This document shows positions 9,180-55,488 of a stretch of DNA of 64,000 bases, piece after piece; positions within the stretch are counted from its first letter, which is position 1; every line of letters begins with the position of its first letter. The notes under the pieces are model-generated. The model had not been told where the DNA came from. It did not search any database and was given only the letters and a program-made list of their open reading frames with translations. The stretch is from Raillietiella orientalis (lineage: Eukaryota), in assembly GCA_036172245.1 (NCBI GenBank), contig JAYWIR010000014.1:4278001-4342000 (forward strand). The letters are read 5' to 3'. The translations under genes and the position numbers were made by a program.

Positions 9180-11095
9180 GACGGGAACTCCAAAGTGACC
9201 CTCTTCTTGTTCTCTCTGAAGGGACTCCTCGGAGCTGGACACTCCGTTGTTTCTTCTTCGAAGGAAACCCGCAAGGCAACCGCTGCTTGTTCCTCCTCTG
9301 AAGAGAACCCCGAAGGGACACTTCCCAACTTCCCTGAAGGGCGCCCCTCGAGGAGAACAGCGCGCTTCTTCTTAACACTTCCGAGAGACATCAACCAACT
9401 CCATGGTACGCGATGGCGACTCCATTTTTTAGAGCTGGAGGGAAACCCGAAAGGCTTCTTGATGTCCCAGAAGTCTCGAAGGGTCAACTTCCAGTCCCGG
9501 CCAGTTAACGGGGACATCCGAAAGTTTCCGGTTTCCGCCGATGCCGCATTCGAAGCCTACAGGCCAACCAGCGTCATCTTGCTTTCGTGGATTACCCCTG
9601 GAGCACCACCTGGTGCGGACCTGCACGTCTTCTCGTCTAGAAAGCTGCCGGCAGCGTGGGACGCGCGTCCTTCCTTGCGCGCCCTCCACGCTCGTCCACT
9701 GCAGTCTCGTCCACTACGGACTGCACCTTCGACAGGTGGCCACGCTGGCGAGGAAAATGGGATGGATCTCGTGCCGCCCCGCGAACGGTAGTGCCTGGTT
9801 GCAGGGAACTGTTCGCATGTGGGCAAGGATCCAGGAGCCGAGCGCGGAACAGGGGTGACGTTTCCCCTACGCGCAAAACAACTACACTCTCCGGGAGATC
9901 CGTGGGCAAGCAGTACCTCCCTCGCTACCGCGCTGCCCTCCCTTAGGGAGCACATGGACAGCAGCCTTATGACTGGATGGGGGTCAGTGTGGAAATCTCC
10001 AGAGGGAGAAGAGGACCGGGCGAGTGGACGACGGGACAGCTCACCGACGCTCCGACCCCGGTAGCTCGATCTCGTGGACTTTTGCGCTGGGGCGTGCTAT
10101 TGGGTATTCCGGAGAAAGAGCTGCAGTGGCACCCTGCAGGTGCTCATGAACACCCGCACTTCCTCCTTATAGTGGCAGGAGCCTCGAATCTGCTGCTGCT
10201 GCACTGAGACCTCCCGTGCAACGCCTGCCGGCATCACTGGACACGAAGGGGGGGGAAGGGGTGGACTCAAACTGTGTCAGGTAGTGCGGGGAGCGGGAAT
10301 CACTCCCGCACCTCCTAGTAAACTCCCTCCTCCCCCTTCGGGGACGCTTCGTCGCGACCCTCGGAACCCCTGGAGGCAACGCCAGAGGCGTTTGGAAGCA
10401 ACTCTTCCTGAGAGACGCCCTCACGCCAGTAGGCCGCATCCCTAGCAGCCCTCTTCTGCCTACGCGGGATCGTGACTGCATGGAGCAGCCTCAGAGTAGG
10501 ACAGAACGATAGAGACACCATTTGTTTTGCTATCCTCTTCATGAGGACAGCGTCAAGATGGCTCAATCTGGGAGTCTCGAAACAGGAACTTGTCGGCATC
10601 CTGCAAAGGATGCATTCGATGTCCTTCAGCACCCGATGATCTCTTCCCGAACACCTATTTTTTTTACTGTACGTTTTTTTTGTTTTATGTTTTCCTTTTT
10701 TGTTTGTTCCCCCCCCCCCCTGCTACCAAGGTGAACCTCGCCGGCCTGCACGCCGGTTCTCAGCAGGTTCCTTTTCTAACGCATAACTCTGGTCTTCATT
10801 CTAACTCATAATTCTTCCTTTTCGTGTATGTGACATGGGGAGACCAAGCGTCCTGCCACAGACGTGTATGTTTATTTTGTAAATAAATGCCCCGAAGTGA
10901 CCGGGTGTCAACCAATGCTGCACCCGAAGCCTACAGGCCAACCACCGTCATCTTGCGAGGAGAACTCGACACTCGTGACACACCCATTTCTCTGGCGTCG
11001 ATCTTCCACGTGGATCGGGAAACGTGGAGATTCGAACCCGCGACTCTTGGTACCACGAGCGGAGACTGCAGCCAACCTGTCCTGGGAGCGGGCAA
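9180..11095 (-). mobile_element. tRNA-headed SINE copy interrupted by an antisense Tx1-like LINE fragment
   Basis: The minus strand from ~11094 reads ..AGGACAGGTTGG..GGTTCGAATC.. (A-box-like and B-box at tRNA spacing), then a core shared with the 19931-20725 copy. The SINE tail resumes at ~9536-9180, homologous to 20110-20600 and 31900-32348. Confidence 0.7.
9595..10910 (+). mobile_element. 5'-truncated, decayed Tx1/L1-clade LINE (ORF2 C-terminus plus 3' UTR)
   Basis: Translates in pieces to EHHLVRTCT.. (homologous to ~27240 minus) and the CCHC knuckle DSNCVR*CGERESLPHLLV. It continues ..MRTASRW..KQELVGILQRM, then a T-rich UTR and the family 3' end AATAAA-gccccg..ccgggtgtca. Confidence 0.85.
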
Positions 11096-11979
11096 CTCGA
11101 TGTCGCATGTGGAGCAAAAAGCATTTTCCAGGGATGGACGTGACCAGGGATCAACAAGCAAAGGATCCAGCAGGGAAAGATCGAGCCCAAAGGACTTCAT
11201 CGCTTTCTGCAGTGAAACAGACATTAGTGGAACCATAAATAGATGAAGACGTAGGCGGTTGCAACGTCCGGGTCGATCGACAGAAAAGGGAACGGACTTG
11301 AACCCAGCAGTGGCACCTTCATGGTGGCAAGGGAAACGTACTGGAGAATGAGGGCGAACTCGGCATTCGGGACAAAAGTGTCCCAAGCGACCTAGCCACC
11401 CAACGTGTGGACGCGCTCACAAAGGAGATCGCCTCCAGCCTGCGCACCAGGCGACGTGGACGTCCGTCCCCTCTTGTCAGACGCGCGCACATCAAAGGAC
11501 GACCACGTCCTGCGATGCACGGCCCGGATCTCGGGGCAGTTTTCGCTCAACGGAGGGCATCTCCGACCCGCGGTGATTGCGGATGCATCCATTCGGCGCG
11601 ATTCGTGTCGTAGATTGCCCACCAGAGGCGGCGGCGGCCATCTCAAGTGTGGAGGGCGTGGAGCGTGGCGGCCAATCGCTCGGTCTCAAACCTCAACGGA
11701 TGCACCAACAAACCGGCCAGGCGCTGACCACGGAGAAGGGTGGTCATCTGAGCCAGACGCCGGTGGTCTGTAGCCAACCTGTCCCGGGTGTGGACGGACT
11801 CTGGATGTGGAGCTCCAGCGAAGAGGAAGGCAAGGTGCTCGCGGCGGATACTCGACGACGGTGCGGGGGAAGGGGAAGATTTCCCCTGTACCGAACTGCC
11901 TCTGTTGACCTCTCTCCACCACCACCCCTCCCCATCCCCTTCCCTCACATCGCACCGATCACACACCGATGCACTAGGA

Positions 11980-12310
11980 ACTCAGCTCTTTCTGGTTAAG
12001 CTCCGGGTGCTCACTCCCCTCCTCACTAATGAGATCATCAGGAGGTCTTCTGAGGGGGAAGTACTGCTCCCAGAAGTCCATCCTTAACGAATGATAGGAA
12101 CTCCCGAGAATCTCGACCGGGAGCGATCGTTTTCGTACGCCCCACTTCCACCCACATGGCAGCACGTGACGGGCAAGGCTTTCCTTAGTGGATCCGCATA
12201 CGCGACTCTCGCCAGCCCCGCTGGACGAGGGCGGTGCTCTCCTCCCTCCGTACGGCTCGGTGGGAGACCGACTCTGCTGTTCCCGGCTGCTTCTCGACCG
12301 CGATGGTCCC
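11980..12310 (+). pseudogene. Possible eroded APE-endonuclease N-terminus of a LINE ORF2
   Basis: NEIIRRSSEGEVLLPEVH resembles the D-xx-LQETH motif. The following VTGKAFL..GRGR..LGGRPTLLF follows the GVAIL..GR..G..L order of L1-type endonucleases. Weak, by-eye similarity only. Confidence 0.3.
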
Positions 12311-12870
12311 CCCCATGCACTCAGAGGACAGGTCCAGAGACTTGCTGCAAGGCTCCTTCTGTGCTCGGGACTCTCCACGCCGCGTTTCGCTCGCGGAGAC
12401 ATGACGACGGCGAACTGCGGAGCGAAGACGAGGACGCAAGCAGGAAGACCACCCCGAAGAGGTCGCAGCCAGATGACCCCATACCGGGAATGGTGGAGAG
12501 ATGAGCTTTTCCGGTTCTCCTGATGAATGCGGAAGACGCACAGATGGGCCCCTACCCCCAGCACCTACCACCGATGCCTATTTTTCGTGTGTGTTCATCC
12601 ATTTCTTCTCCACTCCCTCTCTCTCAGGGGATTCCGTCTAAAGGCGACATGTCCGCTGGCGTCCTCGGTTCCTCCTGTACAAACTGCACAGAAGGGACCG
12701 AGGGTAAAAAGTGACCTCGCCTTTCACATTCCGCGGGTGAAGCAAACGCCCTGGCGTGAATAGGTGGTTGCGCTTCCGAGGAGGGATGCGACCTCAGGCG
12801 GATCTCTCCAGACCAGCTGCAAGATGCCTCTCGATGTGAAGGGAGCGGGAATGCCGGAAGCGGAAGGTCC

Positions 12871-13245
12871 GGAAGGACATGCAAGGGAAGTAGTTGGAGG
12901 CGTGGTTGCAGGGCGGAATCGGGAGCGGCAGAGCTCGCCACCGGAAAGAGGGTTCCCCACTCCCTCTCAGGAGTTGACTCCTCTCCGGTCGGTTTGATTT
13001 GGAAGCGAGCCGTGAGCGCCACGGCAACGACGAGCCCGACATGTCCGGCGATCCCTCGCAGTGCCCTGGATGCGGGAGATGCCGCAGCTGAGGGCATCCG
13101 CGATCCGGCGGCTGGCGATTCACTCGTGCAATGCCGCACGACCGACCAGCCGCGCGGGCAGCGCTAACCTCGTGTGCAGCTGGCGCGTGCTGCGGGAGGA
13201 ACCTCTGCAACCACGCCTCCAACTACTTCCCTTGCATGTCCTTCC
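12871..13245. repeat. Perfect 41-bp inverted repeat, 293-bp spacer
   Basis: 12871-12911 ggaaggacatgcaagggaagtagttggaggcgtggttgcag is the exact reverse complement of 13205-13245. Confidence 0.95.
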
Positions 13246-14364
13246 AGGACTGCACCGAGGGAGATGGAGAAGAGGACGTAGTCCGGGTTAAGACAGGCTT
13301 CCTGGAAGACTGAAGCTTGGTTGGCTTCGAATTAGCGCATCCCGGAAAGGAAACACAAAGCTGTGACGCCGGATCCGGCACTCCAGGACGACTGAAGAAT
13401 GGACCGGCTGGACGCCCCCCTCCCCTACACATCGTTTCCGCTTGTCGCTCTCCCCTTCCTTAGGGAAGGCGAGAGGAAGCGAGCGCGAGGAAAGAGCAGC
13501 TACCAAGGATTGGCTCTCCGTTTCACCGCTTGAGGACCACCTGAATTGGGGAGCGAACGATCCTCGGATCGCCAGGCCATTTATCTGAAATAAACCTATA
13601 AAATTCATGCAGCTGGAGAATCAGACTCTGTCAAAAGGAGGAGGTGGAGAGTCCAGGTGGATTGCGTAAAGGACGAGAGACTCCCTCGTTTGGGGATGCA
13701 CATGCGGTGGATGAAAAATGTAGACAAAGAATGGAAGAAATGACGCATTGCTTTTATCAAAGAAGACAGAATGGGGGAGGGAAAAGGAGACTGTGGAAGT
13801 CCTCAGAAAATGGGAGGGTATGGGTGGGGGGTGGATGGACGACACCAGGGTCGGCTTGCTGCTCCTCGATCCAGGCGGAGAGTCAGGTGGGAAATTTCCC
13901 TTCGCGACCAAGTCGACGGAAGCGACAAGAGCGAGGTTCCGGAACCGTTGCTGAGGCAGGTAGTCGACCCTTGCAGAGAAGGATCGTCCCTCGAGATCTC
14001 AATAAACACGGCGAGGTGGACGCAAGCTGGCCCTCTTGTGAGCGCACAGGAGTTTTGGTCTGCAGAGGCGTCGGAGGCGAATCTAACGGCCCCGGGTCTG
14101 GAGCAGCACGGATCGTCCCAGACTGTTGCACCCGGTGGGGAAAAGAAAGGGCCTGTTCCAGCGTTGAAACCCGCCCATTTCTCTCGCGTGTCCAAGGGCT
14201 GGCCCACTTCTGCAGCGAAAACTCAGGGGTGAGACGGTCTGAGCGAGGGAGGAACCTCTGCTCCATGAACACGGGGAGGATTTCTGAGCAGGATCTTTGG
14301 ACCACTCTTCGCCGAATAAACGAAGAGCTGATTCTATTATGAGTTCTGAACAAGGCATCTTCAC

Positions 14365-14970
14365 TCACAAAACACCTGGGGGGGCGTGGACTCCAACTGT
14401 TGCATGTGTGGGGAACGGGAATCCTTCTCGCACCTGCCTGTAGACTGTGCTGCCCTCCGTCCTCTGTGGTTGCGTTACGCAACGGCCTTGTACACCGACG
14501 GACAATCCCAGAGACGTGACAAAGCCTCTTGACAAAGCGATGCCCTTCGCCTGCCGCATCAGCAGCAGCTGTCTGCTGCTGCCTACGTGGAATTGCGGCG
14601 GCTTGGAGCTACGCGAGAGGAGGACGGCGCGATAAGGGCGCCATCTCCTTCGCCCTGAGCTTCATGAAGACAGCAGCTAGGCCTGACAGCAGCTATGGCC
14701 TCACCTGGGACATACTCAGAAGAAACTTGCCGGCATCCTGGAAAGGATGCAGAGGACGCACTTTAGTACCCGGTGATCCTTTCCCTAACCCTCCCAATTT
14801 TTGTATATACTTTTCTTTTATTTTCTGTTTGGTCCCTCCCTCTCCGCTGCCGAGACTCGTGCCAGCCTGAGTGCCGGTTACTCAGCAGGTTCTGAGCATT
14901 TTCGGACAATGTAGGGCCCTACACATGTGTGTTTATTTTTTTTAAATAAACGTCCCGGGATGACTGGGCC
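14365..14970 (+). mobile_element. 5'-truncated Tx1/L1-clade LINE 3' fragment
   Basis: VDSNCCMCGERESFSHLPVDC knuckle, ..FMKTAAR.., T-rich UTR, GTTTATTT-N5-AAATAAAC at 14931-14951, then the cccgg-gatga-ctggg terminal stem. Confidence 0.85.
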
Positions 14971-16379
14971 TAATAACTGTCGCGGTATGACCCACTCGCG
15001 AAACCACCAGGACTCAAAGAAAGGTCTGCGCAACTCTGATCCCTTGCTTCAAGCAAGTAGCGAAGGAGGCGGCCGAAACAAGGAAGCCTGTGGAATCCCC
15101 AAAGGACCCGGAGGACTCCGTAAGTGCGGGACGATAGTCAGATTCGTATCCTGGACTAAAAGGAAAACGTCTTCTCTTAGAAAAGCAAGAGGTAGCCGGA
15201 CGTACAAACCCGCACGCTTCTTTCTAGGAAGAGTAGCCGCCCAAGCTTGAAGGGGCCCGTGAGGAGGATGCTGGAGGAACAGAACTGCGAAGCGCTTTCC
15301 ATACCCTTTGCGATCTGACCAGTCATCATATTTGCTCAGTACCTAATGGGGATGTCAAAGCATCATCAGAAGACGACATGACTATAAGATAGCGAGTGAG
15401 TGACCAGGCAGGCGAGTGATTTCTCTCTCTTGACTGAGTGTCAGTCGGAGGCCTCGGGGTCAGTATGCATGACTTTAGGAGCTTCGGTCGGGTTCCAAAT
15501 GAGACAAAGTACTCCCCTTCCCCAGAATAAGAACAGCGCTTGAGAGAGAGTGGGTGTTCCTGACAAGAAGCGGGCTACCCCCGAGAATTCCGGATCCGTC
15601 GAGGAAAGGGGAAGGAAAAAACTCTGGATGAATGAAATCCTCTTTCCCATGCAACCATTTATTCTGGAAATTCCTGCCTCCTGACAAGCTAATCTTCCAG
15701 TGGATTGGTTGTCCTGGAAAACCGAAGAGGCACCCAAGGGGTTCTCGCTGTTTGAAAGATTGCAGACGGGATGTTAGAACCCTGCTCTAAGACGATCCCG
15801 TCTCGGATTCAGCGGACGAACGTTCCAGCAGATAGCACTTTGCTGATATCCGTAGGAAGGGCTCCAGCTGCATGCAAATGCGAGGAAATGAGGGGCGTTT
15901 TTCAAACTTCACTGCTGATCCCATCCCTCTCAGGAACGAGGGAGACCTTGGTCCTTGATCTGCATGCCCCCTTCTTGAGCGAACGGGAAGTTTGTCCTGA
16001 GCTTCGCCGTCTTCTCTGAGTTCTCGGCTCCCTTCCTTGAATCCTGGATTCAGGAACCTTCCATGCCGCCAGCATGGAAGGCCTCGAAAAGCCTTATCCC
16101 ATGATGGCTTCCAGAGCCAAGGCATTCAAGAGGAAGGGTTTCAGCAACCGGTTCCGGACAGATCACCCTTCCATGGAGTTCCTGGCCATTTTTCGGTAGC
16201 TCTGCTTTCAGGAGATAGCCTTTAGCTCTGGAGGGGACAGTCTGGCATGCGAAATGGAAACATATTGCATCCAGGTTGCAGGTCCAGGGTTGAAGCTGAG
16301 GACTCTTTACACCTTGCTTTGATTCCTGTAGGATCAAATGCTTCTATTTGCTCTTCTGATGTGGCTCATTATCACGGAT

Positions 16380-16860
16380 GGAGACCCCTTAACGAAGATT
16401 TCGATGGCCATTGACGCCACGAGTGAGTGCTGGGAAGGAGCCAGATGGGTAGGTTCTTCAAACACCAAGAAGAGGACTCAAAAGATGAGCTGCGGGCAAG
16501 ATTCCATAGACGGGTTGAAGGAGCAGGGACTCTCGTAGCAAAAGAAGGGAACTCTGAAGAGCGAAAGGGACCTTGATCCACGGTTTCAGAATGTTGTCGA
16601 CCTTCAAGAGGGAAATCAAATACAAGAAAGCAGAATCTGCGGACACCGAGTCTCCTCTCTTCCAGACACAGAACCACGAATCTAAAAGGTTGGATGAAAG
16701 GGGCAGCAGATTTCGCTCGTCTGCCATCGCAAACGACGTAAGCCAAGCCTCTAATTGTTCTTACCTTCGTCTTCCAGTTTGTATTCTCAAACGGATGCTC
16801 AGATATATCTCCTGCTGGGCGGGAATCCTCTATGATAAACTCTTCGTTGTCTATCTCCTT
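16380..16860 (+). pseudogene. Possible DIRS-type RNase H relic
   Basis: ISMAIDATSECWEGA resembles TDAS..GWGA, QDSIDGLKEQGL resembles HIN.LE..A, and SAIANDVSQ resembles N..AD.LSR, in the expected order. Upstream (~15090) GIPKGPGGLRK resembles RT VPK..GG.R. All are very degenerate. Confidence 0.3.
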
Positions 16861-17839
16861 ACTCTTAAATGAATCACTTCCGACTGGTTACGGCTCTTCA
16901 GCTGGCTTCCTCGCTCCCAGAGATGCCCCACCTGAATGCAACTGCACAGTGGTGGTCAAATACTCCTCACTTTTCTTTAAACGCACATCTGTTTGTTTGC
17001 TTTCTTGATTGCTCTTTTTTTCAGAGAAGATCCCTTCCTTGGGGTGCTGATGGAACGACACTTGTTTTTCTCAGAGACTCCTTTTCGCCGTTGAATGTTT
17101 CTCCCCGACTCTTCCTTCCGTGTCCCACAGTCGTACCCTTCCTTCCTGCCCTCTGCTTGTCAAAGCAGTCTGAAATTAGCTTTAGACAGCAAGCTCAAAA
17201 ACTAGCTTCAAGTCGTTCCTTCAGCAAGATGAAGGTAGCAGGCACAGAGATGGTTGCAATTTGTGGTGGCATGCAAACCGGTGTGCCACCCCCTGAATTC
17301 CTTCATCACTACCATTCTGTATTGTTTTCTGATGCACTATCACCCATGCTACTTGAACCATTACCGTAGTATTCTTCTTCCGCTTGTTCTGTTCATGCCG
17401 AGACTGCCGCTGCTAAAGTGTCACTACGAATCCATAGCGTCCGTCATCCCTGTCTCTCTGTTCAGTTCTTCTTGCCCTTCTCGGCAATTGTTTGTCACAG
17501 CAAATCTCAGGTCTACCAACTTCGAATCTTCTTAAAATGATGAGATCCTATCCTGATGTCATCCGCTCATTCCTCGTCGTTGCCAAGGTGGCTCCAGAAC
17601 ATCAACCATTCATTCTTCATCTCCAACCATAAGCCTCACGATAGCTTCGCTCTCCTTCTCTCACAAGACATCTCCACAATCAGCATCAGATACTTTCAGT
17701 ACACAAGCTGAATCTTTGACTCCTTCAGCCTGTCTTCAGCTTTCATTCCGGTGGTCTACGAACGTTAGTAATGGACGGGTGCGTCAAACAAGTCTTAAGC
17801 ACCGTAAGGGCCCATATTTGACCCTGCGATGGACAGCAC

Positions 17840-18196
17840 AATAAATTAATAAAACATTGATATTAATTTAACTTTTACGTTTAACCGCTACTGCTGGCAC
17901 GCATATTAGCAATACCTTAAATAATTACTAATTCAATTTTTTTTATAATTAAAATTAAATACTACACACTTTTATTTTAAAATTTATATATATCTCATTA
18001 TTTCAACTAATATTAAATCACATGTCCAAATTTTTACTAACAGCTCTAAGCATAATTAAATCCTAAATTCAATACATATATTTTTGTCATATGAGTTTTC
18101 AATTTTAAACAAGAAATGTTTCCTTTTTGTTGTAAATAAAATATTCTATTTAACTACTCCCTGCCTTTTTAAAATAATCAAATTTAAAATTTAATA
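17840..18196 (-). pseudogene. rrnS: NUMT: 5' part of mitochondrial 12S rRNA, possibly with adjacent AT-rich control region
   Basis: Abrupt, very AT-rich island in GC-rich DNA. 17882-17900 reverse-complements to GTGCCAGCAGTAGCGGTTA, the conserved SSU GTGCCAGCxGCCGCGGT motif in a mitochondrial-like AT-rich context. Confidence 0.85.
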
Positions 18197-19930
18197 GGTC
18201 GCATTGGTTTGTAGGTCAGCTTCCGGCAGACCAGCGATTCCCTTGTGGAGCCAGCAAGGAAGAGTTTGCCGTGGATACGGATGAAATGATTGCGTCGACC
18301 AGCACCAAACCCCTAGCAGTCGAAGGAGTTTGAATGAATCTTTTTCCCCTTCTTTTTTGTTTTTTTATATCGAAGTGTCACTCAGTTTCTCTTAGGAAAG
18401 CGAATCTATTCGGGATGCTGCGTCGGAGTCTCCTAAGAATCGCAGTTTTTTATGAATTCGTCCTATAGGACTCGATACTTTGTCTCAGAGTCCTTGGGCC
18501 CCAATCGAAGTCCCTGGGCGGAAATCTTTGAGAGCGAGGAGAGAGTTTGTCGAGGCTCCGGGAAGGAGGACTTCGATGGACCGCCTCCTCCTTGGACGGG
18601 TGTGAACTCCCTAACCTGCCTGTCAGCCACAGCAGTGCCAAATTTTGCTTTTGTTCCTCTGCCAGTATTCCCGGGAGATTCCTACTCGTACGTCAGGCAC
18701 GGTCGTTTCCCACTCGCAAGTCAATCCCATTCCAGAGATCCATAAATCAGGATCTTTATCCGTTCCCCATCCTCTGTAAAAAGGGGGAATTTCCTTCTGT
18801 TTCCCAGTAATCTGCGCGACCGAAATCTACGCTGGACGCGATCGATCTCGTGTCTTTCAAAACCATGCAGGATGGAGGGACTGTGTCCTCACATCCCTTC
18901 CTGCGACCTCCCCCGTAGGCTCGCGTGCCTTCCGCTTCCCGAAAACCGCCTCAGGGCTTTTTTCCTCCACCGTTCCAATCGCTCCGACTGCGACCCCCTG
19001 ATCGGACACTCGAGCCCCCGTCACGCATGACCCCGGGCCGTCTCTCTCGAAATTGCTCGTTTGATGTCTCTGCCTCCCTCCGCTGTCCGGTTCTAATCCC
19101 TCCATTCCCGTTTCCCAGAAACTGGTGGATTTGGCGTTCGCCGCGGTTTGTTGGGGCATCTTTTGAGGCTGACGAGGGATTAGAAGACCATGCTACCCGC
19201 TCCGCTTCCCTACGGATGAAAGCGCCTGATCTCCGGTGCAGCTTAGAAGAAGAAACATCTGCGGAAGTCGCGGCCACGGATCGCAGACCATCGACTTCTT
19301 GGTTTCGGACATAGGGAGATTCTCCTGCGCCGCAGATCGAGGGTTGCGCAGATGCGAGAGCGCCGGGAGCACTGCGCACGGAGACGGGCGTTCTCGCTCC
19401 AGCGGATCCGACGACCGCCCTTGGACTTGAGATGGCGGCCTCGCCAGACTCTCCTTAGGGCGGCCTCCGGCGGAAGTTCCGCGTGCGAGGACACGGAGAG
19501 TGCTATGGGTTTGCCAGATGCGCTCTGCAGGGGCGGTATCGGTAGACGAATGCCCATGGCGCATCGAGCACTGTGTCGAAGAAGTGCCGCCTCTCCGATC
19601 CCTCGAGTCCCGGAAACCTGCCGGATGTTCAGAACACCCGTGACCTCGCGCTTCTGGGGTGGACCAGACACCCAGTTCGGAAGAAATTGACCCCGCTCTC
19701 CTGAGGCAGACAACTGGACGGCGCTCCCGAGGAATGCGAGCAGGGAAAGATTCCTCTTCTGTCCACCGTCGTTTCCGTCCGGGCACTCGTCACCCGAAAC
19801 ACGGAGCGGCCTGTGCACTTCCTGGTTGCCAGCCCACTCCGGGATTCCGCAAAAGGAACTTCCCGGCAATGGCGAGGGCGGAGAGACCGGAGACCCTAGC
19901 CCCGTGTTCGAGACCATGTCGCAGCCATAT

Positions 19931-20725
19931 GGCTCGCGTCAGAGATCACGTGGCTGCTGACGTCTCCGTGCGTGGCGCCGCCAAGCGTCGCGGGTTCGGA
20001 TACTCGGGAAGAATCGATGCCGAGGAATAGGAGGTGAGTCGCGGGTTCGGGTCCCTCCCGCAAGATGACGCTAATTGACCTGTCTTTGAGTGTGGTACCG
20101 GTAGCGGTTCGAATCAGATGCCCCCTATGAGTGGCAGGGACAATGGGAGTCGGCCTTCTGGGTCCTTTCAGGAAACTGAATCAAGGATCAGTTGGGGATC
20201 CCCTCCGGTTGTGCGAAGGAGCTGTCCCTTCCTCTTCGTGAATGGACCCTCCGTGTCGTACCTTGGAGCTGGTAGATTGATGATGACACCTCTCCAGTGT
20301 GCAAGAAGCTCGCTCCTCCTTCGGGAAGCGGTCTTTCAGAGAAAATTGGGACGCGTCCCTTCGTGCTTCCTTTCAAAGGAGTAAACAGGAGTGGTTCCCT
20401 TGCGAGTTCCCTCCGAAGAGGAAATTCCTAATAACGGATCCTTTCCGGGTTCCCTTCGGAGAAGAAAAAATGGAACAGATCCTTCAAGGGTCTCTCCGGA
20501 GAGAATGAGGGAGAGGTTCCTTTTGGAGTTCCCTCCTCAGGCGTGAGAGGAACGGACTCCGAGCCCTTTCTGGATTCATAGAGCGGACTCCTTCCAGTGT
20601 TACCCCATATCTTGAAGAATCACACGTATTTTTGGGTGGCATGGAACAGCGCCAAAGAGCTGCAGGAGCTGCCAGGCGCGCGACAGTTCTGGAGGTACTT
20701 GGAGAACCAAAGAAAAACAAAACGT
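19931..20725 (+). mobile_element. Uninterrupted tRNA-headed SINE (~0.8 kb; empty LINE target)
   Basis: Head ..gtggctgc..gtctcc..ccaagcgtcgcgGGTTCGGATAC (B-box-like, ~19993) and core ..cgcaagatgacg.. join directly to the tail. The tail is homologous to the reverse complement of 9180-9536 and 31815-32348 and ends A-rich (gaaccaaagaaaaacaaaa). Confidence 0.7.
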
Positions 20726-22199
20726 ATTCGAGATTGGATCGGCATCTCTTCTCTCCGCATGATTTGTTCAGCGCGGTCCATTCTTTATGCCTCTTTCATC
20801 TCTCAAAGGAATGCGGAAGGCGTAAAGCGCAGGATGTATCGATTGCTTGTTTCAAGGATCACCTCTGAAGAAGACGGGACATTACCTTTGAAATATCCAG
20901 GAAAAATGAGGGATGCAGCACTTACCCGGGCAATTTCTGAATCGTCCGAAGATGCTGGCAGCCTTGAGAAGGCCTTAGCATGAGACCTCTCCGGGAGCTG
21001 TCACGCGGTTACGACTGCCAAAGAGATCTTTGCGCAAGAGACATTAGAAACCGCGTCCATCGAGGGGGGGGGGGGGGCACCTGAGCAGAACCCTCGAGGT
21101 CACGAGCAGAATGCGAGCTCCAAGATTCATGCAACTGTGGCGCGTGTGGAAGGGTATCTGGGCGCATTTTCCGCGGTTCCTGTGTCTCCTTATCCTCCCG
21201 TAGGGTCGCAGAGAATCGTTCATCCGGTTTCTGGTGCACGTCCCAGCCATTCTGGATGAGGATGGGCTCACACCATTCTCCTCGTGTTTCCCCCTTGTGT
21301 GGAGAAGGCACACCTAATCTATGTAAAAGTGGTACAGGTCAAGAACGCATACAGATGTGGTAGGCGTCCACCAAACAACTGAAGAACGGTCCACCCGATC
21401 CCTCAGCTGAGAAACGAGCGGGCTTCATCACTGAGCCTGACCGAGACCAAATCATGGTCAGTTTATGGCGGTTCGATGGTGACTGAAGCGCTTGGCAAAC
21501 GCAGTGAGAGTAAAAAGGTCATCCTAGAGGCTGCAAACTCATCTCTGTCACCGTTTCTAATACAGGTTCGACGCTTTACGATGAGGACTATTATTTGAGC
21601 GTTGTCCTTGGAGATGCGTGGTCCCTCCTTAGAAGGAACAACTTGGAACTCGGGAAACAATTAAAAATCTCCCTCGAGATACAATCGATACAACTCAGGT
21701 CCTCCACCGATCCCTTAGGCATAGATCAGAATTTTCTTCTTTTTTTTTTAGCACTGATAATTGTGGTAATAGCAGAAGTAATGGGAGGAGGAGAAAGAGT
21801 GTTCCGAGGCGGGTCCCGTCCTGAGAACGAGAAGCCGAGGTCCCTGCCATCTGCTCTGAGAGACTCCCGCGGAGTCGCCACCTCCGCGTCAAGTTTCGGA
21901 GAGGAGGGTGGTGGCGGGGGGCAGGTCCAGCTCCCTACAGGACCGCTTCTCTTCTACGGCCTGCAGCAAGTCGCCCAGAAGAAAACCCCGGATGTATCGA
22001 GCGCGCAGCATGTCTTCTTGACTGCAGGCGATCCTCCTTCTCCAAGGTCACCAGGCTCGCGAGCTCCTACCTCAACCGGTACAACCTCCCTGGGTCAGCG
22101 AGCCAATTGTCATTGTAGTGGTAAGCGACCACGGAGGCCAGGTCATATGTTGAGGGGTCTCAGCGGAGGTGTGTAGCAGGTTGCCCTTCGGTCCGAAGT

Positions 22200-24454: not shown

Positions 24455-24600
24455 CCTGCACTGGTGGCTGTGTGACCGCGGTCTCCACGCGTCGCGCCAG
24501 ACGTTGCGGGTCCGAATTCCCGTGCGGAACGATCGACCCCGGGGAATGGATACGTCGTAGATTCCAAGACCTCCTACCCCCTCAGCAGAGTGACTCTGGT
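24455..24600 (+). mobile_element. SINE head plus core abutting a LINE 3' end
   Basis: ggctgtg..gtctccacgcgtcgcgccagacgttgcGGGTCCGAATTCC.. is homologous to the other SINE heads. Confidence 0.65.
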
Positions 24601-25105
24601 TTGACACTCGGTTGCTCCAGAACGTTTATTTATATAAAAAATAAACATACAGGTCAGTGACAGGACTCTTGGTACTGCCATGTCACATATGCGAAAAGAA
24701 ACTTTGATCTTAGCCAAAAGGTCGAGAAGGCGGCACGCAGGCCGGCGAGGTTAGCCTAAGCAACAGAGGGGAGGGGAAAAAAAAAAAGGAAGACATAAAA
24801 CAAAAAAAAACGTACAGTAAAAAAAATAGGTGTTCGGGAAGGGATCATCGGGTGCTGAAGGACATTGAATGCATCTTTTGCAGGATGCCGGCAAGTTCCT
24901 GTTTCAAGACTCCCAGATGGAGCCATCTTGACGCTGTCCTCATGAAGAGGACAGCAAAACAGATGGTGTCCTTATCGTTCTGGCCTCCTCTGAGGTCGCT
25001 CTATGAAGCCACGATTCCGCATAGGCAGAAGAGGGCTGCTAGGGATGCGGCCTACCGTCGTGAGGGCGTCTCTCAGGAAGGGGAGCTTCCAAACGTCTCT
25101 GGCGT
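24601..25105 (-). mobile_element. 5'-truncated Tx1/L1-clade LINE 3' fragment
   Basis: Close reverse-complement match to 10380-10910 (the antisense ORFs 24852..25394 and 10315..10632 are near-identical), with the same UTR and 3' end. Confidence 0.9.
24701..24729 (-). pseudogene. U2: U2 snRNA 5' fragment (about nt 5-33)
   Basis: The minus strand reads CTTCTCGACCTTTTGGCTAAGATCAAAGT versus the metazoan U2 5' end (ATCG)CTTCTCGGCCTTTTGGCTAAGATCA(A)AGT, one mismatch. The rest of U2 is absent. Confidence 0.85.
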
Positions 25106-25109
25106 GGGT

Positions 25110-25210
25110 TCCGAGTTCCACTCCTCATCCTCAGCGTCTATTCCTTTACGCTGGGAATCGGACCCTCAACGCTTGGTGCCACACGCGGAGAGATCACAGC
25201 CATACGCCTG
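25110..25210 (-). mobile_element. Isolated SINE head
   Basis: Minus strand ggctgtgatctctccgcgtgtggcaccaagcgttgaGGGTCCGATTCCC is homologous to the heads at 32850-32890 and 11030-11095. Confidence 0.65.
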
Positions 25211-25992
25211 CGATGGAGGCCGTGCAACAGGTCTCCGCGCTGCACACCTTCTGCCTTCTCTCTCTCCCTATATTCCGCGCCGTATCCCGTTCGCCTTTTC
25301 TGAACTCCTTCCCGGTAGCATTCGAAGGAAAATTCATCTTCTTTCCTTCACCGTTCCTCCTTGCTGCCTAGCGGTGCCAGCCACGACTTCGTGAGTTGCC
25401 GGAAGGGGTCCGAAACCGTAAAGTTCTGGAGCCGCACCCTCTCTGAAGCAGCCCAAACTGAAACGAAAGCGCACCCAACACGGCGGAAAGAACCTGCCCG
25501 ACGCAGGACCGCATCTCCCGGTGCCCTACCACTGCCACAGAATCTCCGAATTTACCTGCGAGCTCTTTTTTTGTGTATGTTTTTTTCGTCTCGAATCCCT
25601 CGCGATTGGATTTCGTCTGTCCATTTGGACGTTTCCGACGACGTGCCTCTCCACATCCGCACACACCCGGAACGTCCCTCGGAGTCCAGCTTCTGCACCA
25701 GCGGACGAGTCTCCAGATGACCAGGGAAGCGACGCGACAGGCCCTTTTGGATTTCCCACGCGATCGACACTTCTGTGCTTCGGGATCGGCCATGTGAGCT
25801 CGTGAAGCATCCTCGTCGCACCCGGAAGACACGCTTGCGGACGCATAGGAGGTCCCTGTTGGGATCCAATCACGTCTCCTATGGCTCCGGCTCCACAACA
25901 GGAGCATTCGTGCAACGGATGGTAGGGTGGGCATCACTCCTCAGAGGGATGCGGAACCAGAACTCGGAAGGATCAGCCGTGGTGCTCCTCGC

Positions 25993-28700
25993 TTCTCACC
26001 CGGGTGCGGCGGGGAGTTTATTCTTTCGAACAAAACAAGTCAAGAGTCTGTGGCTTAACCAGTGGTCCAGCCACGCGCGAATAAACAATAGCGAGCCTGC
26101 CGGGTCACCGGTTCGCAAACCGGTACGGTCCACCACGACAGGAGAGGGGATAGGGACGAAACAAAAAATAAAAATAAAAACAACATCTGGGGGGCACGAG
26201 AAGGGGTCACAGTCTGCTGGAAGGCGTTACATTTTTTCTAGGATGCCAGCAAGCTCTTTTTTCATGTGTGTGTCCAGGTGGGCCCATCATGTCTCCATCC
26301 TCATAAATTCGGCGGCGTATTGGACAGCACCTTATCACGGGGTCCTCCTGTTGCTTTGCTCCATGCGGCAACGATCCCGCGTAGGGAACACAGAGCTGCT
26401 AACGAGGCCGCAGGCTGGAGGGCGTCGCAAACGAAGAGGGTTCTAATTGCGTCCCTGGAGTTGCCACAGGGGATCCCGATGGCCGCGGCAAAGCGGTTCC
26501 AAAGGGACCGAAGAGCAACACAATCCACTAACAGGTGGGGGAGGGACTCACGCTCGCCACACAGTAAACAATTTGGGTCTACCACTCCGAGTGTCCACTG
26601 GTGCCGGCGGGAGTTGCACGGGAGTCCCCAGTGAAGCACCATGAGCGCAGACTCCTTCCACTTCAATAAGAGGGTATGGGTGTCCATCAGCACCAGGGGC
26701 CACTTCAGTTGTTCCAGAGGAACATACAGCAGCTCGCCTTAGCGCAAAAGTCCAATAGGGGTGGTAATCCGGGCCGCAGTATCTGAGGGTCTGCCCGTTT
26801 TCCATTCTCCGATCCTCTTCTCTGTACCGGAGATTTTTGCAAAAACTTCCCATGCCGCCGCGGTGTTGCTTCCCTGGTGGGCTATGAGGGAAGGCAGCAC
26901 TACAGCGAGGGGAGTTCTTCCTACCCACTCTCTTTTTGGGGGTTCTCCAGGACCTTCCGGAGCGTGAGGCGGTCGTTGCGTGCAAACAGCTGCCTTCACT
27001 CTTGTTCGGCGCGCTGCTCGTTGCTCCCCGCCCATGCGTATACGGTTTCCCGCAGCCAGCGGGTCCGTTAACTGGGAGACAGGAGAGCCACCCCACGTGG
27101 TTCCTCATCAGATCGGCCACTAGCCGCAGCTGCAAATGCGGTGGCCGACTTAGTGGCGACGATGTAGCGCAAGAAAGGAAGACAGTCCTACCTTGCTGGT
27201 GACCTGCTTGACAAGGAGGCGTGCAGAGTCGCACCAGGTGTGCTCCAAGACTTTGCCACTAGGGAGAGTAACCGAAACTGAAGCTGAAGCTTTAGAAGCT
27301 CCAGCGTCGGGAGGCCGAGACCGCCGTCCCTACGCAGAGCGCTCAAGTCCACAACTCGGACTAGGACCCTCCCTCTGCCCCACAGGGCAATTCGTAGAAG
27401 GTCCTGCGTTCACTTTTTTGTCTCTGTAGTTGGGGGACAAGCAAAAAGTAGGGAACGGAGGAGGGGAGCCTCGAACGCGTTTCACACCGCGGCCCGTTCC
27501 GGCAGGAAAAACCTGCCACCTTGGAACGGGTCGATCGCCATCTCTACCTTCTGAAGGCAGCTGGACCACGCATCCGAAGGGTGATAATCTCCCATCTGTA
27601 CACGGAGGTATTTAAAATACCTGACCATGGGGATCCTTAAGCAGACCCAGTCCTACTGCCCTGCCCACGCCGCACCAATTGGCATCACGGACGACTTCGC
27701 CCTTTTCACCCTTAGCCCTGTTCCCCGGCTTGGTCGAAGAATCCTCGACGGCGGAAGCCGGGGTGCACATAGGGAGCAGCAGAAAAAGATCGTCCGCGCA
27801 CGCCGAAACCGCAAGAGCACAGGACAATCGCGCGGCAGGTACTCCAGAATCTCCTTGTACGCTCTCAATACCAACTCGAAGTAGGTACTGAAGATCAAGA
27901 GGCTCAGGCTGTCTCCCTGCCGTATGCCGCGTCGCACCGGTACGCCGTGCACGGTGTCCACTAAAAGAGATCTGGATTAGCGCAACGCGCCAGCAGGAGC
28001 TCAGGTAGGCCATCAAAGAGGCCAGGAATAAGAAACTCCAGCAGGAGCCTCTGGTCGACGCAGCCGAATGCTTTGTACAAGTCGACTGCGACCGCAAGGG
28101 CTCCCTCCCCCACCCGACCATCTGACGCTTTGCCGGCGCACGCACCGGAATTCCAGCTGCTCATCAAACCCCTTTCTTGTTGGTGCTCTAGCCAGGTGGA
28201 AGCGTGGAACAGGTTCGCCTCCATGCTTCGCCCGGGAACAGCATATGTCTGTTCCGGGCTGATGAAGGCATTTGCAACCCTTCCCAAACGCCCACAACTT
28301 TGCCAGCAACTTGGCGTCCGCATTCACTATTGTGATGGGACGCCAGTTGCTCCTCAGATCTCCTCCCTTTGGGAGGAGCCGCACCTTTGCCGAGCGAAAC
28401 GAGTCGGGAACGTCGCCTGTCTCGCGGATCAGCAAGTGAGTACCAGGGGAGTGAACTCTGCCGCGAAACATTGAAAAAATTCCGCTGGCAGGCCGTCATC
28501 CCCTAGAGCTTTAGCCTCTTGAGCCTTCCGATGGCGCTGATGATTTCACCCGCCGTAAAAGGCTCATCGAGGTTCCTTCTTTCTTCCTCCCCGATCGCAG
28601 GAGCGCCTTTCGGAAGCAGGAGTCGCGCGACATCCCGTTCCGGAGGCGCTCGCGCGTACAGGGAGGAATGGAACTTCCTTATTGTCCCTTTCACCTGTGC
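25993..28700 (-). mobile_element. Decayed Tx1/L1-clade non-LTR retrotransposon: RT domain, thumb, CCHC knuckle and 3' UTR (5'-truncated)
   Basis: Motifs in order across frameshifts: LDEPFTAGEIISAI, DDGLPAEFF, LLPKGGDLRSNWRPITIVNADAKLLAK, ISPEQTYAVPGRS, VDLYKAF, RRGIRQGDSLS, CADD, FKYL, GGLGLP, CLLCGERESLPHLLVDC. The UTR ends AATAAAC-tccccg..cccgggtg. Confidence 0.93.
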
Positions 28701-29669
28701 GGGACCCCCTTGCCCCCGTGCTGCCCTCCCTCATAGAAGCCAGGGACAGCCAAGAGGAGGCTTCTTATGAAGTGTCCTGCCTCATTGGAGGCAGGAAAAA
28801 ACTCATGAAGGCGTGGACGTCCCGGGAACTAGAGGACGCTACTACCCCGAGTGTCCCGCCGAATGGGCTGGAGCGAGCTGCTCGACATACCTCCAGAGGA
28901 GGTGAAGTGGCCCCCAGCGTCTTGGGACAACGGCACCCTTCCCCTGCAGTGGCAGGAGACGGCGTTGCTTCTGCTCCATTGGGGACTTTTAAGCAGAGCA
29001 CGCCTGTCTCACTGGACATCAGGGAGTGTGGATGCCAATTGCGCAGAGTGCGGGGAAAGAGAGACCTTCCCCCACTTAATCATCGAGTGTGTTGCTCTCC
29101 GTGAGATGTGGGATCAACTCTCGTCGATCCTGAACATTCCGGTGGGCGACCCAAGAACATTTTTCGAGCCTCCTGATGCGGGACGCCATGCCAGCCTCCG
29201 AGTGTGTAGCAGTGCTCTGTTGTATACGCGGAATCCTGGATAAGTGGGCCGCGTCAAGGAGAGGCCTCACCAGTTGGAATGCCATCCACTGGGCAGCCAT
29301 CTCTTTGGAGAAGGCTTCCCGTTGGCACCGACTTGGAAAACATTTGCCGGCACTTGTTCGCATCCAAAAGCGGATGCAGAGGCCTCCTCACGGCGCACCG
29401 TGATTCCCTCCCTTTCCTCCCCTCCCAAAAAACATTGTCCCCCCAGGCGTTTTTCTTTTTTTGTTTTATTTTTGTTTTTCCCGCCCCTGCGCCCGTGTAG
29501 AGGACCTTACCTGCCTGCGGGTCGGTAAGGACAAGTGCCCCCAAGACAGTCGGAACATGTGTTCCGGCTGAAAAACAAACAACAGAGTGACAACAAAAAG
29601 ACTTTATTATAAAAAAATTTTATTGTGAAGAATTTTGATAATAAAAGCCCCGGCTCACCCGGGTGAAAA
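28700..29669 (+). mobile_element. Divergent Tx1/L1-clade LINE subfamily, 5'-truncated, head-to-head with the previous copy
   Basis: WQETALLLLHWGL..HWTSGSVDANCAECGERETFPHLIIECVALREMW.., ..LCCIRGILDKW.., T-rich UTR, AATAAAA-gccccggctcacccgggtg. Confidence 0.88.
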
Positions 29670-31790
29670 ACCTGTGCGGGATCCGAGTACTTCCAGCCCT
29701 GGTCGTCCAGCAAGTGGTGCTCCTCGTGGGCAGTGCCCTCTTCCCCCGAAGTCTTAGGAGAAAGGACGAATCTTCTTCCTTGGTTGAGGCGGAAGAGCCT
29801 CCGAGCAGTGCCTCACGGACAGCCGCCTTGGTGCGAGCTCGCACCACGGAAAAAGACGCGAGCCAACATCGCCGCCGTGCTTTCCCTTCGAGCATCACCA
29901 CGGGCGTTTGCGTTGTTGAGCTCCGTCCGCTCGCGGCCTGGGAGCCACGCGTCCAATCATGCTGTCGCGGCATGCGCAGAAAGCAAAGTTTACATGGTTC
30001 CACCCTTTCTGGGGCTGCTGTGGAACCTCACGCGAAAAGCCAATGAGGCAGCATACCTTGAGGGATGCACGGTTCGTGAGCGTTCCGGGTGTCACTGATA
30101 TTAAAACAGTTCCTTGCCAAAAGTTCCTTGTTCTCTGAAGAACAGGCTGCTCAAATGTTCGAACTGCTCCCATCTGTTGCGAGTTCGCAGAACTACGCCA
30201 AGAACACAACTCAAGGGAACGAGATCGAAACGCCCCAAAGCAGCTCCTCAACTGGGCCATTTTCAGCTGGATTCCGCGATCTCTAAATAGCATCTTCAAC
30301 GGACACATCATCAACCAGATCATGGTTACGGAGGGACACGACGAGCTGGTGATCCAATCAAGGTCAGGATTGTGGAGGCCAGATAAGACCCAGATCGAGA
30401 AGGTCAGCCGAGAACACTAGGAGCTGGTGTACTTCAAAAACACCATTCCAGGTACAAATTCGACGGCCAGAACCGGATATATTACTTGGCGGACGAAGGG
30501 AAGATGGTTGTACTGTACCATGCTATGAATATTCTTCAGCAGCATCGAAAAAGGCAAGGCAGGAGAATTCGGCCAAGCATGAAAGATTGGTTCCCCAGCT
30601 CACCTCCACAATAGTGCTTGCAACGGTAAGAGCGGAGAATCTCCGGGATCTTGGGATCAGAGGAAGGGCGAAATGTGGACGGAATCGAAACTGTTGCTCA
30701 TTTTGGAAGGCCAAAAAAAAAAATTGTTGACCTGGAAGAATCATAAACCGATACTGCAGTTGCTGTGATGCTACACGCTATTCCAAACACCATGAAACAA
30801 ACGTGCGCGTGTGTGTGATGCGTGTGTTTGTGTGGATGGAGAACAGGAAGAGGGAAAGAATTCATCCAAAGAATTCTAAGGCCTGAGAGATAGTAGAGTA
30901 TAGAATACCCAGAATGAGGGAAGATACAGAATTGCAGCAAACGATTCCCACGTCAGAAAAGCTGCTCGCATGTTGGCGTTTTTTTGGACGCGTCCCGAGC
31001 ACGCATGTGTACTCGGGAAGCAAACTTGGCAGCTCGACGTGTTTCGCTCGGACGAAAGTGTACACAAGCATCCCTGCTTCGTATGCGGAAAAGCGGCTTC
31101 AGAAGCTGCTCATCCGAGCTAGGAGTAGCGGCACGGCGAAGGCGGCGGCTCTGGTACCGGAGCAGCATCTCGCTACAGCAACGTCCAGGAAGGTCGTCAG
31201 AGTCCACAAAAGTCTTATGAGAACACTCCCTGCTCAGGCGGAAAAGAGCGTGGAGGTGTTCAGGCTAACTGGGACTCGCCCGTTCATGTGCCAATATCGA
31301 GGAGATGAGGGAGGGAGGAAGTCGATTCGGAATCTGGTTTTTGTCGGGCTTTCTCCGGATTCTACCAAGACTTCAAAAGATCGGCGGAGCAGCAATACGA
31401 AATGGAGATAAGTCGGCGGTGGATGTTGTTGGACTTTCTTGGAGTTGACTCCTGAGATTCTGTTCTCCATTCCTAGTTTTTTTTTCTTTTTTCCCTCAAT
31501 TCGATGTCCAGAGCTCAGAATAGAGAGATTCCGCAAATGAATAGGGAGCAGATGCATCCTCCATCCACTTGCATTCTTTCTTCTCACTCTAAAGATTGAA
31601 ACGTAGAGAAAGTAATCCAGAACACCAGTCTAGTATCTCACAATCTCACAGCAGTCCACTGGAATTACCAAACCTCTGAAGGCGTTTGTTCCCTCAGTGT
31701 GTGACTGATTTACTGGTGAATTGCTGTTGTGAAACAGTGGTAAGAACAAATCCTCTTTGATCCTGATCATGATTCTTGGAAAGCTCTTCC

Positions 31791-32890
31791 TTTCTTTTTT
31801 TTTTTTTCCTTTAGTTCTTAAAGTGCTGAAGAACCGTTTGCCTCCCCGGGGGGAGCTCACAAAACTCTTGAACACCACCCGGGGGTGCGTGCAACCCTTT
31901 GAGACAACCAAGGCGATACCCGGAAGGACCACCCTACGAATCCAGGAAGGCTCCCGAGGAAGGAATCCGTTCCTCTTACGCTTGGATAGTAAAAAAACCT
32001 CGAAAGGAATCCTCGCCCTAGTTGTCTTCGGAGGGAACCTCTTCCTCATTCTCTTCGGAGGGACCGCTAGAGTGAGAAACTCCTCGTTTCTTCTCCGGAG
32101 GGGCTCCTCGGGAAAGAGTCGCTCTTTTGAAGAGAACCCCGAAGGGACGCTTCCCAATTTCTCTGAAGGGCGCTCTTCTTACACTCTGGAGAAGCGGCCT
32201 CCCGATGGACGTATTAACCAGCTCCATAGTACGCGACGGAAGGCTGTATTTTCGCAACCGAAGGGGTACCCCGAAGGGCTCCTTGATTCCTGGAGGGACC
32301 CCGGAACTGTCCCGGCCAGTCAGTGGGAGCATCCGGTTTCCGGCTTCCACCAGTGCGGGATTGTGACTGCATGGAACAACGCCAGAGGAGGCTAGGACGA
32401 CAGGGACGCCATCTATTCTGCTGTCCTCTTCATGAGGACAGCGTCAAGATGGCCCATCTGGGAGTCTTGAAACAGGAACTTGCGGTCATTCTTACAAAGA
32501 TGCAGAGGACACCCTCTAGCACACAATGATCACTTCCCGAATCCCCCATTTTTTTGACTATATGTTTTTTGTTTACGTTTTCCTTTTTGTTCGTTTCCCC
32601 TTCCCCTGTGCTGCCTAGGCGAATCCCGCTGCCCTGCGCGCCAGTTCCCGGCAGGTTCCTTCTCGTAGTTACAAGTAACGTGGCAGGATCAAACGTCCTT
32701 CCACAGATGTGGATGTTTATTTTATAAATAAACGCCCCGGTGTGACCGGATGTCAACCAGTGCCGCACCCGAATATGGGCCAACCAGAGTCATCTTACGA
32801 GGAGAACTCGAAGCCCATGACACACTCATTTCTCCGGCGTCGATCTTCCACGCGAGGATTCGAACCCGCAGCGCTTGGTGCCACACAACC
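31791..32890 (-). mobile_element. SINE copy with poly(A) tail, interrupted by a 399-bp antisense LINE fragment
   Basis: B-box GGTTCGAATCC on the minus strand at ~32856-32866; core 32764-32855; tail 31815-32348; T-run at ~31791-31807 is the poly(A) tail on the minus strand. Confidence 0.75.
32357..32755 (+). mobile_element. Short 5'-truncated Tx1-like LINE with 8-bp target-site duplication
   Basis: Homologous to 10465-10910. ACCAGTGC flanks both ends (32349-32356 and 32756-32763). Confidence 0.85.
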
Positions 32891-32924
32891 GTAATACAGC
32901 AATTGATATTGACGTCCAAAATCA

Positions 32925-33160
32925 TGGACGTCAATATCAAGCAAGACCTTGACGACATCTTCCAAAGAATGCAGAGAACTGCCCTCAGCAGGACGTGACC
33001 CCTTCCCGAATCCCTCCCCCAGAATTGTTTTATTTTTGTTTGGTCCCTCCCCTCTGCTGTCGTGAGAATCTTCACCGGCCTGCGAACCGGTGTCACGTGC
33101 AGAAAATTGGAAATGTTTATTTCATTTTAAATAAACACCCCGGCGAACCCAAGTAAAAAA
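32925..33160 (+). mobile_element. Very short Tx1-like LINE 3' end
   Basis: DVNIKQDLDDIFQRMQR corresponds to GVLKQELAVILTKMQR of the other copies. Followed by UTR, GTTTATTT-N6-AAATAAAC at 33115-33136 and a short A-run. Confidence 0.8.
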
Positions 33161-33345
33161 ATAAGTGCCACACCTGAAGCCTGCAGGCCAACCACCGTCA
33201 TCTTACGGAATGGAGGGGGGGAATATGGAACCCACGACGCACCCCCCCTCTCCCATTCTTAGTGCCGATTCTCCCGTAGGATACTTGAACCCGCAACGCC
33301 TTGGGCCACACAGCAACCAACGCGGGCGCATGGCTACAGTAGTGG
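33161..33345 (-). mobile_element. SINE core plus head downstream of a LINE 3' junction
   Basis: gtgccacacctgaagcctgcaggccaaccaccgtcatctt matches the core at 10915-10954. B-box-like GGTTCAAGTATCC on the minus strand at ~33279-33291. Confidence 0.7.
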
Positions 33346-50050: not shown

Positions 50051-50093
50051 CACACGCGAGCGCACGCACACGCACACACACACACACACACAC
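50051..50093. repeat. Imperfect (CA)n/(CACG)n microsatellite
   Basis: Direct read. Confidence 0.9.
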
Positions 50094-55487: not shown

Positions 55488-55488
55488 T

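Follow-up and report, generated by a model that had tools for sequence, protein, structure and literature searches.

Does a long interspersed nuclear element (LINE) choose, again and again, one site inside a short interspersed nuclear element (SINE)? The question is raised by a repeat-rich locus of Raillietiella orientalis on contig JAYWIR010000014.1 (assembly GCA_036172245.1), which we analysed as a window of 64,000 nucleotides (positions 4,278,001 to 4,342,000 of the forward strand; all coordinates below are those of the window). Searching the 64-kb window with nhmmer and a profile of the LINE tail, we found seven decayed 3' ends of one LINE family, here called A to G, which are confined to 9.5-33.2 kb, the profile matching nowhere else in the window. 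Several of these ends meet a SINE-like repeat at the very same nucleotide, and the evidence supports repeated, independent insertion at one sequence inside this window.

LINE ends and their junctions

The identical SINE nucleotide adjoins the ends of LINEs A (10910), F (32755) and G (33160), the SINE lying in antisense to the LINE in all three, and the junction 8-mers read ACCAATGC (10911-10918), ACCAGTGC (32756-32763) and ATAAGTGC (33161-33168), respectively. LINE C (24602) adjoins, after one extra A, the 8-mer ACCAGAGT (24600-24593, minus strand), which belongs to an ACCAG motif 27 nt deeper in the SINE (32783 in copy F), and LINE E is followed by ACCTGTGC (29670-29677). The flanks of B, D and E gave no match to the SINE-head profile even at E<=100. 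In this window, then, four of seven ends lie in the SINE-like repeat and five of seven at an ACCWG-type motif. The SINE pieces make up about 2.4 kb of the 64 kb, yet they hold four of the seven ends, three of them at one nucleotide and in one orientation, and therefore chance is no explanation. The first-pass annotation of this locus had listed all five 8-mers, and on reading the sequence we find each of them at the coordinates it gave; its proposal that five LINE ends join the same SINE core stands for the three ends at one nucleotide and, with a distance of 27 rather than about 25 nt, for the second site used by C, but the family has seven ends and the flank at 29670 is LINE D. Targeting of the SINE alone is not supported, with three of seven ends outside it.

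All seven copies are 5'-truncated, and their truncation points vary. LINE A (9583-10910, plus strand; 9584-10911 by nhmmer) is 1.3 kb long and comprises the C-terminus of the second open reading frame (ORF2) and the 3' untranslated region (UTR). Profile matches define LINE B (about 14365-14972, plus strand), with a 3' flank that contains neither SINE nor motif, LINE C (24602-25116, minus strand, about 515 bp) and LINE F (32357-32755, plus strand, 399 bp). LINE G (about 32932-33160, plus strand) measures about 230-255 bp, its 5' limit falling between 32905 and 32932, and has a 3' terminus of the type found in D and E. Every copy finishes with AATAAA, behind which come a short GC hairpin and, as a brief terminus, either TCA or a few A; none has a poly(A) tail. 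The family is best explained as now extinct and as having comprised at least two subfamilies, A/C/F and D/E/G.

A SINE profile built from three copies and searched with nhmmer gave eight matches, which represent six copies (S20, F, A, G, C and H). The unit measures about 790 bp, which is long for a SINE, and has A-rich tails in copies S20 and F. Copy S20 (19951-20725, plus strand; E 6e-209) is uninterrupted, as had been reported for the SINE near 20 kb, and retains an empty homologous site (20095-20102) that has drifted and reads ACCGGTAC on the antisense strand; its borders carry a possible 13-nt duplication (19903-19915 versus 20723-20735, 10/13). Copy A is split into a body (9163-9582, minus strand, profile positions 109-548; E 1.1e-120) and a head directly 3' of LINE A (10911-11074, minus strand; E 1.3e-45), and copy F likewise into a body with an A-rich tail that ends in the upstream copy of ACCAGTGC (31796-32356, minus strand; E 1.7e-157) and a head that begins with the downstream copy (32756-32893, minus strand; E 8.9e-45). 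Head G (33161-33315, minus strand; E 1.6e-15) has no SINE body upstream of its LINE. Head C, also an nhmmer match (24477-24601, plus strand), is antisense to LINE C and meets it at the second ACCAG motif, and head H (25119-25196, minus strand, profile positions 9-84; E 1.3e-8) lies in sense directly 5' of LINE C. Heads C and H thus flank LINE C as an inverted pair, both carrying the variant GGGTCCGA instead of GGGTTCGA, and what lies 5' of LINE C, where SINE body was expected, is a sense head that breaks off near position 84. This arrangement would be explained if the flank had been duplicated in inverted form during integration, or if the target had been a pair of inverted SINEs.

Like a SINE, the repeat is a short, non-coding and multicopy retroposon with an A-rich tail and, possibly, in S20, a target duplication. 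Pfam recognised no family in those open reading frames (ORFs) of at least 150 aa that overlap SINE copies. A short resemblance of the SINE 3' end (near 20640) to the C-terminus of the LINE ORF2 was judged to be chance, as no BLAST match backs it. The tRNA origin ascribed to the repeat in the first-pass annotation was not confirmed: ARAGORN found no tRNA gene, Rfam gave no match at the gathering score, and no tRNA emerged when the threshold was relaxed to E<=5 for 25 kb of sequence or to E<=10 for two stretches of SINE head.

Three of the insertions retain target duplications. In F the 399-bp LINE splits the SINE between two perfect 8-bp copies of ACCAGTGC (32349-32356 and 32756-32763), just as had been described. 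In A the split SINE carries a duplication of about 46 bp (9537-9582 versus 10911-10956; 39/46 by eye with one gap), and BLAST aligns the flanks 9522-9582 and 10895-10956 at 82% identity over 62 nt. LINE E (28708-29669, plus strand) is bordered on both sides by the 15-bp sequence ACCTGTGCGGGAYCC (28693-28707 and 29670-29684, 14/15) and lies within LINE D (25993-28692, resuming at 29685 and running to about 29990, minus strand), a frameshifted copy that extends from the reverse transcriptase to the 3' end. The minus strand beyond E reads LLDDQGWKYSDPAQ, and with a V contributed by the duplication 10/15 of the first residues of a related database protein, P0004, are matched. LINE D thus resumes beyond E as the start of P0004, and therefore E is nested antisense in D; when E is taken out, the reading frame of D with respect to P0004 is restored. 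An alternative reading, in which D and E were a single double insertion, head to head, with about 50 bp duplicated, gave way to this nesting. Across duplications of 8 (F), 15 (E) and about 46 bp (A) the 3' junction is constant, which bears out the earlier description of a fixed 3' junction with variable 5' truncation.

The neighbouring copies F and G are arranged as body, LINE, head, LINE, head, which recalls tandem insertions of site-specific elements, although the two heads are not close copies. A 9-mer, GTGCCACAC, stands on both sides of LINE G: just ahead of its 5' end, where SINE head F finishes (32879-32888), and just behind its 3' end (33165-33173). A very long target duplication by G as the source of both heads, F and G, finds no support and appears unlikely (Kimura two-parameter distance 0.34-0.36, as against 0.18 between A and F).

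A target sequence shared with a site outside the SINE

The site entered by E, in the coding region of LINE D, resembles the SINE site without being SINE. Aligned in register from -5 to +20, the pre-insertion site of E and the SINE site of F agree at 19/25 positions (binomial P 1.4e-7), the target contexts reading CTTTC^ACCTGTGCGGGACCC at 28688-28707 and CTTCC^ACCAGTGC at 32344-32356. Locally aligned, the two 300-bp contexts match best exactly at the nick of each (positions 145-170) and at no other place; allowed to align freely, they score only modestly above shuffled sequences, of which 29/500 reach the same score. Beyond these approximately 25 nt the SINE site and the site in LINE D share no homology. 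By its context, E is an independent insertion. The consensus ACCWGTGC occurs eight times in the window against 2.98 expected, and none of 100 shuffles reaches eight; half of these occurrences are the duplication pairs of E and F. One exact and unoccupied ACCAGTGC (24458-24465, minus strand) adjoins the 5' end of SINE head C.

These junctions, the duplications, the motif common to a non-SINE target and the occurrence of several independent events are shown by the sequence. As for the underlying mechanism, we consider it fairly probable that an extinct LINE related to the L1/Tx1 type nicked its target 5' of ACC(A/T)GTGC or ACC(A/T)G(T/A)G, within a context of approximately 20-25 bp carried by the SINE, and integrated by target-primed reverse transcription. 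An endonuclease of the apurinic/apyrimidinic (AP) type would nick the bottom strand directly 5' of ACCWGTGC, and reverse transcription would be primed at this first-strand nick. The cut in the second (top) strand would be loose, falling 8-46 bp downstream, which would yield the three duplication lengths (8, 15 and about 46 bp). The majority of insertions would have been truncated at the 5' end. With the site lying some 165 nt into the repeat of about 790 bp, on its antisense strand, SINE copies would have been the main local landing pads.

But would the enzyme itself have to read the site? Near the SINE 5' end the head has a B-box-like GGTTCGAATC, besides a loose A-box-like TGGCTGCAGTC. This head is faced by the 3' end of the LINE, and the distance from the B-box-like element to the two insertion sites, which are downstream of it, is roughly 80-120 nt, an arrangement that could also arise if an RNA polymerase III (Pol III) transcription complex on the head directed integration, as for the Dictyostelium element TRE3. 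We regard this as unlikely. Three events at the identical nucleotide contrast with the spread of 14-228 bp or more given for TRE3 in the part of PMC5006619 used here, E landed on a 19/25 look-alike of the SINE site within coding sequence of a LINE, where SINE heads are absent from the vicinity, and no tRNA model matches the SINE head.

Read-through pairing, which sharpens integration of R1-type elements, offers a further route to a fixed junction: an endonuclease of low specificity might have been steered by read-through transcripts of master copies residing in the SINE site, which would bear target sequence at their 3' ends and so pair with the nicked target. The missing poly(A) tail and the short terminus behind a small GC hairpin suit such a route, and cotranscription with the target can strengthen specific integration, according to the sections of PMC4494074 considered here. 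Then again, the same nick serves two subfamilies whose termini differ, and B and D end without the motif, which is thus not part of the element. Moreover, the similarity between the E target and the SINE reaches 5 nt upstream of the nick, where pairing by the 3' end of an RNA is not expected. We hold this route, too, to be improbable, and infer that the site was read by the endonuclease rather than by pairing of RNA with the target, and that the pattern extends genome-wide.

Repeated insertion or one amplified chimera

Could all filled copies descend from a single LINE-in-SINE chimera that was copied by segmental duplication or composite retroposition and acquired its different LINE lengths by later deletions? 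All filled copies lie within 24 kb, and A and F have diverged to a similar degree in the LINE (80/393) as in the SINE head (21/136) and body (80/323; Fisher p 0.25 and 0.18). In principle, a single deletion in an A-like copy, sparing 8 bp of the duplication, could have produced F. The relationships among the LINE tails tell otherwise. Their tree is ((A,C),F), with 99% support for A+C, and at the sites where A and F differ C agrees with A in a ratio of 55:28 (p=0.004), whereas B, D and E show no lean to either side. In the SINE heads, by contrast, A and C are distant: mismatches between them amount to 60/408 in the LINE but to 33/111 in the head (Fisher p=4.6e-4). Since A and C are sisters in the LINE, far apart in the SINE head and joined to it at positions 27 nt apart, their ancestor was a live element; F branches outside A+C and is therefore also a separate insertion. 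LINE G falls outside the A/C/F group (41:16 and 36:19) and joins D/E with 84-93% support in a short alignment, so that its insertion is probably, if not provably, independent; a chimera would not readily account for its having the 3' terminus of the other subfamily. Nor would it account for E at the same motif outside any SINE, for the missing homology past the SINE borders, or for the duplication copies of A (39/46) and of F (8/8) being closer to each other than the A-F divergence of the LINE predicts. We thus consider descent from one chimera very unlikely. The first-pass annotation had named congruent LINE and SINE phylogenies as the mark of such a chimera; LINE and SINE-head relationships are in fact incongruent, which favours repeated targeting within the window.

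What kind of LINE

The coding remnants point to a retroelement with a C-terminal zinc knuckle behind the reverse transcriptase. In D and E this knuckle matches zf-RVT (PF13966) with E values of 2.7e-4 to 3.5e-4 and 21.6-22 bits, below the Pfam cut-off of 27.5, as expected because the copies have decayed; RVT_1 itself was not detected by Pfam in the reading frames of the window because of frameshifts. The knuckle is a trait common to L1 and does not discriminate it from Tx1. The closest relative, P0004, is a database protein of 619 aa with an intact RVT_1 domain, to which LINE D has 48% identity across 96% of a stretch of 411 residues; by tblastn, D covers P0004 residues 5-610 at 41-56% identity and A covers residues 500-617 at 46-48%. 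A database fragment of 132 aa, P0011, is 70% identical to P0004. Better-preserved members of the family may exist in a related genome. In a look-up of protein clusters, the commonest taxon for the LINE protein was Bacillariophyta, which is a lead at most. Searches for P0004 relatives in genome contigs returned one distant reverse transcriptase (26% identity) on a short contig of a bacterial bin, those in viral contigs returned no locus, and a scan of metagenomes with the pattern of the LINE 3' end returned 13 loci, none of them similar to the 9-34 kb region.

The longer relatives have 23-31% identity to P0004, and the best relatives overall, mostly without names, show about 24-38%; for 10 relatives the names of their clusters gave no information. 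Exo_endo_phos (PF03372) together with RVT_1 is present in 10/10 of the top longer relatives, and zf-RVT in 7/10 as well. This architecture of Exo_endo_phos, RVT_1 and zf-RVT is common to the L1 and Tx1 clades. On best reading, the LINE would be related to L1/Tx1-type families, its membership in the Tx1 clade, as stated in the first-pass annotation, not being confirmed; the name 'Transposon TX1...' on a grapevine relative and on one protein cluster (score 0.88) is automatic and not diagnostic. Judging from the relatives, the family would have possessed an endonuclease of the AP type.

The 3' UTR of LINE C contains a fragment of about 33 nt (24700-24733, minus strand) that matches the 5' end of U2 small nuclear RNA (snRNA) near-perfectly (RF00004 positions 1-33), the whole hit scoring 23.3 bits, under the Rfam gathering score. 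It stands in place of a segment kept by copies A and F and is reminiscent of the U1/U2-derived pieces on some Tx1 elements, as far as these are described in the part of PMC4494074 used here.

Limits of the specificity and known systems compared

Several observations weigh against a strict reading of these results as site-specific integration. The flanks of B and D contain neither SINE nor motif and agree with the site at 9/25 and 10/25 positions even with the most favourable of 13 offsets, no more than chance would give. Hence the specificity was at best a strong preference and no absolute rule. Four of the eight ACCWGTGC sites in the window are empty. Insertions C and G have no SINE body on their 5' side, and the inverted heads of C are unexplained by a simple model. 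No endonuclease domain is left in any of the seven copies, and tblastn with 296 proteins found nothing upstream of D. Furthermore, the pairs A-F, F-G and A-G have diverged alike in LINE and SINE (Fisher p 0.18-0.44) and taken alone do not reject duplication; the independence of these insertions would rest on the tree topology, which was obtained from alignments of about 250-440 nt. Finally, the whole body of evidence is drawn from a single repeat island of 24 kb in this one window.

How do these features compare with LINEs of established target choice? General models of sequence-specific target-primed reverse transcription are R1 and R2, which are specific for ribosomal DNA (rDNA). The family described here resembles them in its specific first-strand nick and in using a multicopy target as a safe harbour. 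It belongs to another clade, its targets are others, its endonuclease is of another type than that of R2, and its target is itself a mobile element. In Kojima 2015 (PMC4494074), Tx1 is described from animals, with families which target a piggyBac-type transposon, Mariner, long terminal repeat (LTR) and Harbinger elements, snRNA and 5S genes, satellites and microsatellites; examples are Tx1L in the transposon Tx1D, Tx1-Mar in Mariner-N4_AMi, Tx1-9_AMi in Harbinger and Keno in U2 genes. With these target-specific Tx1 LINEs as portrayed there, the present family shares a fixed position and orientation in a multicopy repeat, relatives with an AP endonuclease, a fixed 3' junction and the lack of a long poly(A). 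Mariner-N4_AMi is hit at positions 240 and 830, one per orientation (PMC4494074), and here, too, the host repeat has more than one site. The same study, in the part considered, speaks of target preference when one sequence type makes up >20% of the flanks, a share that the four of seven ends in the SINE-like repeat exceed within this window. Different from the Tx1 targets described there, however, the host repeat is a SINE-like retroposon, two of the seven ends are off target, and the LINE itself is not a confirmed member of the clade. A SINE is not among the Tx1 targets described in PMC4494074, its supplementary target tables aside, nor was one found in a literature search.

TRE3, as presented in the parts of PMC5006619 drawn on here, integrates about 100 bp downstream of tRNA genes and has a zinc finger in addition to its AP endonuclease and reverse transcriptase; it is believed to recognise the transcription complex, with a broad distance window. 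The two systems are alike in their domains and in inserting downstream of a Pol III-type promoter element with the 3' end towards it. They differ in that the insertions at our locus share the same nucleotide and a sequence motif, which is used outside the SINE as well, rather than a distance window irrespective of sequence.

The surrounding sequence

The LINE and SINE copies occupy a GC-rich repeat island (about 9-34 kb, 55-59% GC) beside an AT-rich gene region (35-42% GC). In the latter, three adjacent open frames (39069-41873, plus strand) encode a THADA/Trm732-type protein in long exons with at most very short gaps; they match PF10350 and PF25151 with E values of about 1e-35 and, weakly, PF25150, and these are the only three Pfam matches among the 55 ORFs of at least 150 aa in the window. 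The THADA exon, used as a query, returned just three weak matches, and look-ups for THADA gave a mixture of taxa. A second GC-rich block (50000-61000, 58-68% GC) contains many overlapping ORFs of 150-540 aa on both strands, gave no Pfam match among the ORFs scanned and is free of the LINE and SINE families studied here. Palindrome-like stretches with 59-69% identity lie at 2184-2848, 12867-13250 and 7878-8002, and a 102-bp inverted repeat pair with 90% identity at 6562-6663 and 8165-8064.

Significance

Three of the four local SINE copies that keep the site are filled. It is a serious possibility, which we would place just short of probable, that a LINE lineage of the L1/Tx1 type evolved an endonuclease for a site of about 20 bp carried by a SINE, and that a non-autonomous element thereby became the safe harbour of an autonomous one. 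Going by geometry only, the LINE insertions lie head-on to the presumed Pol III promoter of the SINE, which could give rise to antisense RNA against the LINE. The copies in the window are old and dead, and a fuller genome would be needed to recover their biology. Sequence-specific LINEs are natural programmable integrases, and each pair of target and endonuclease informs how AP-type endonucleases read DNA. Taken together, our results suggest a known habit of some LINEs, sequence-specific insertion, with a landing pad that is new in kind. If this is true, the SINE would join rDNA, snRNA, tRNA arrays, microsatellites, DNA transposons and LTR elements as a class of target, and one retroelement would have exploited the copy number of another as its niche.

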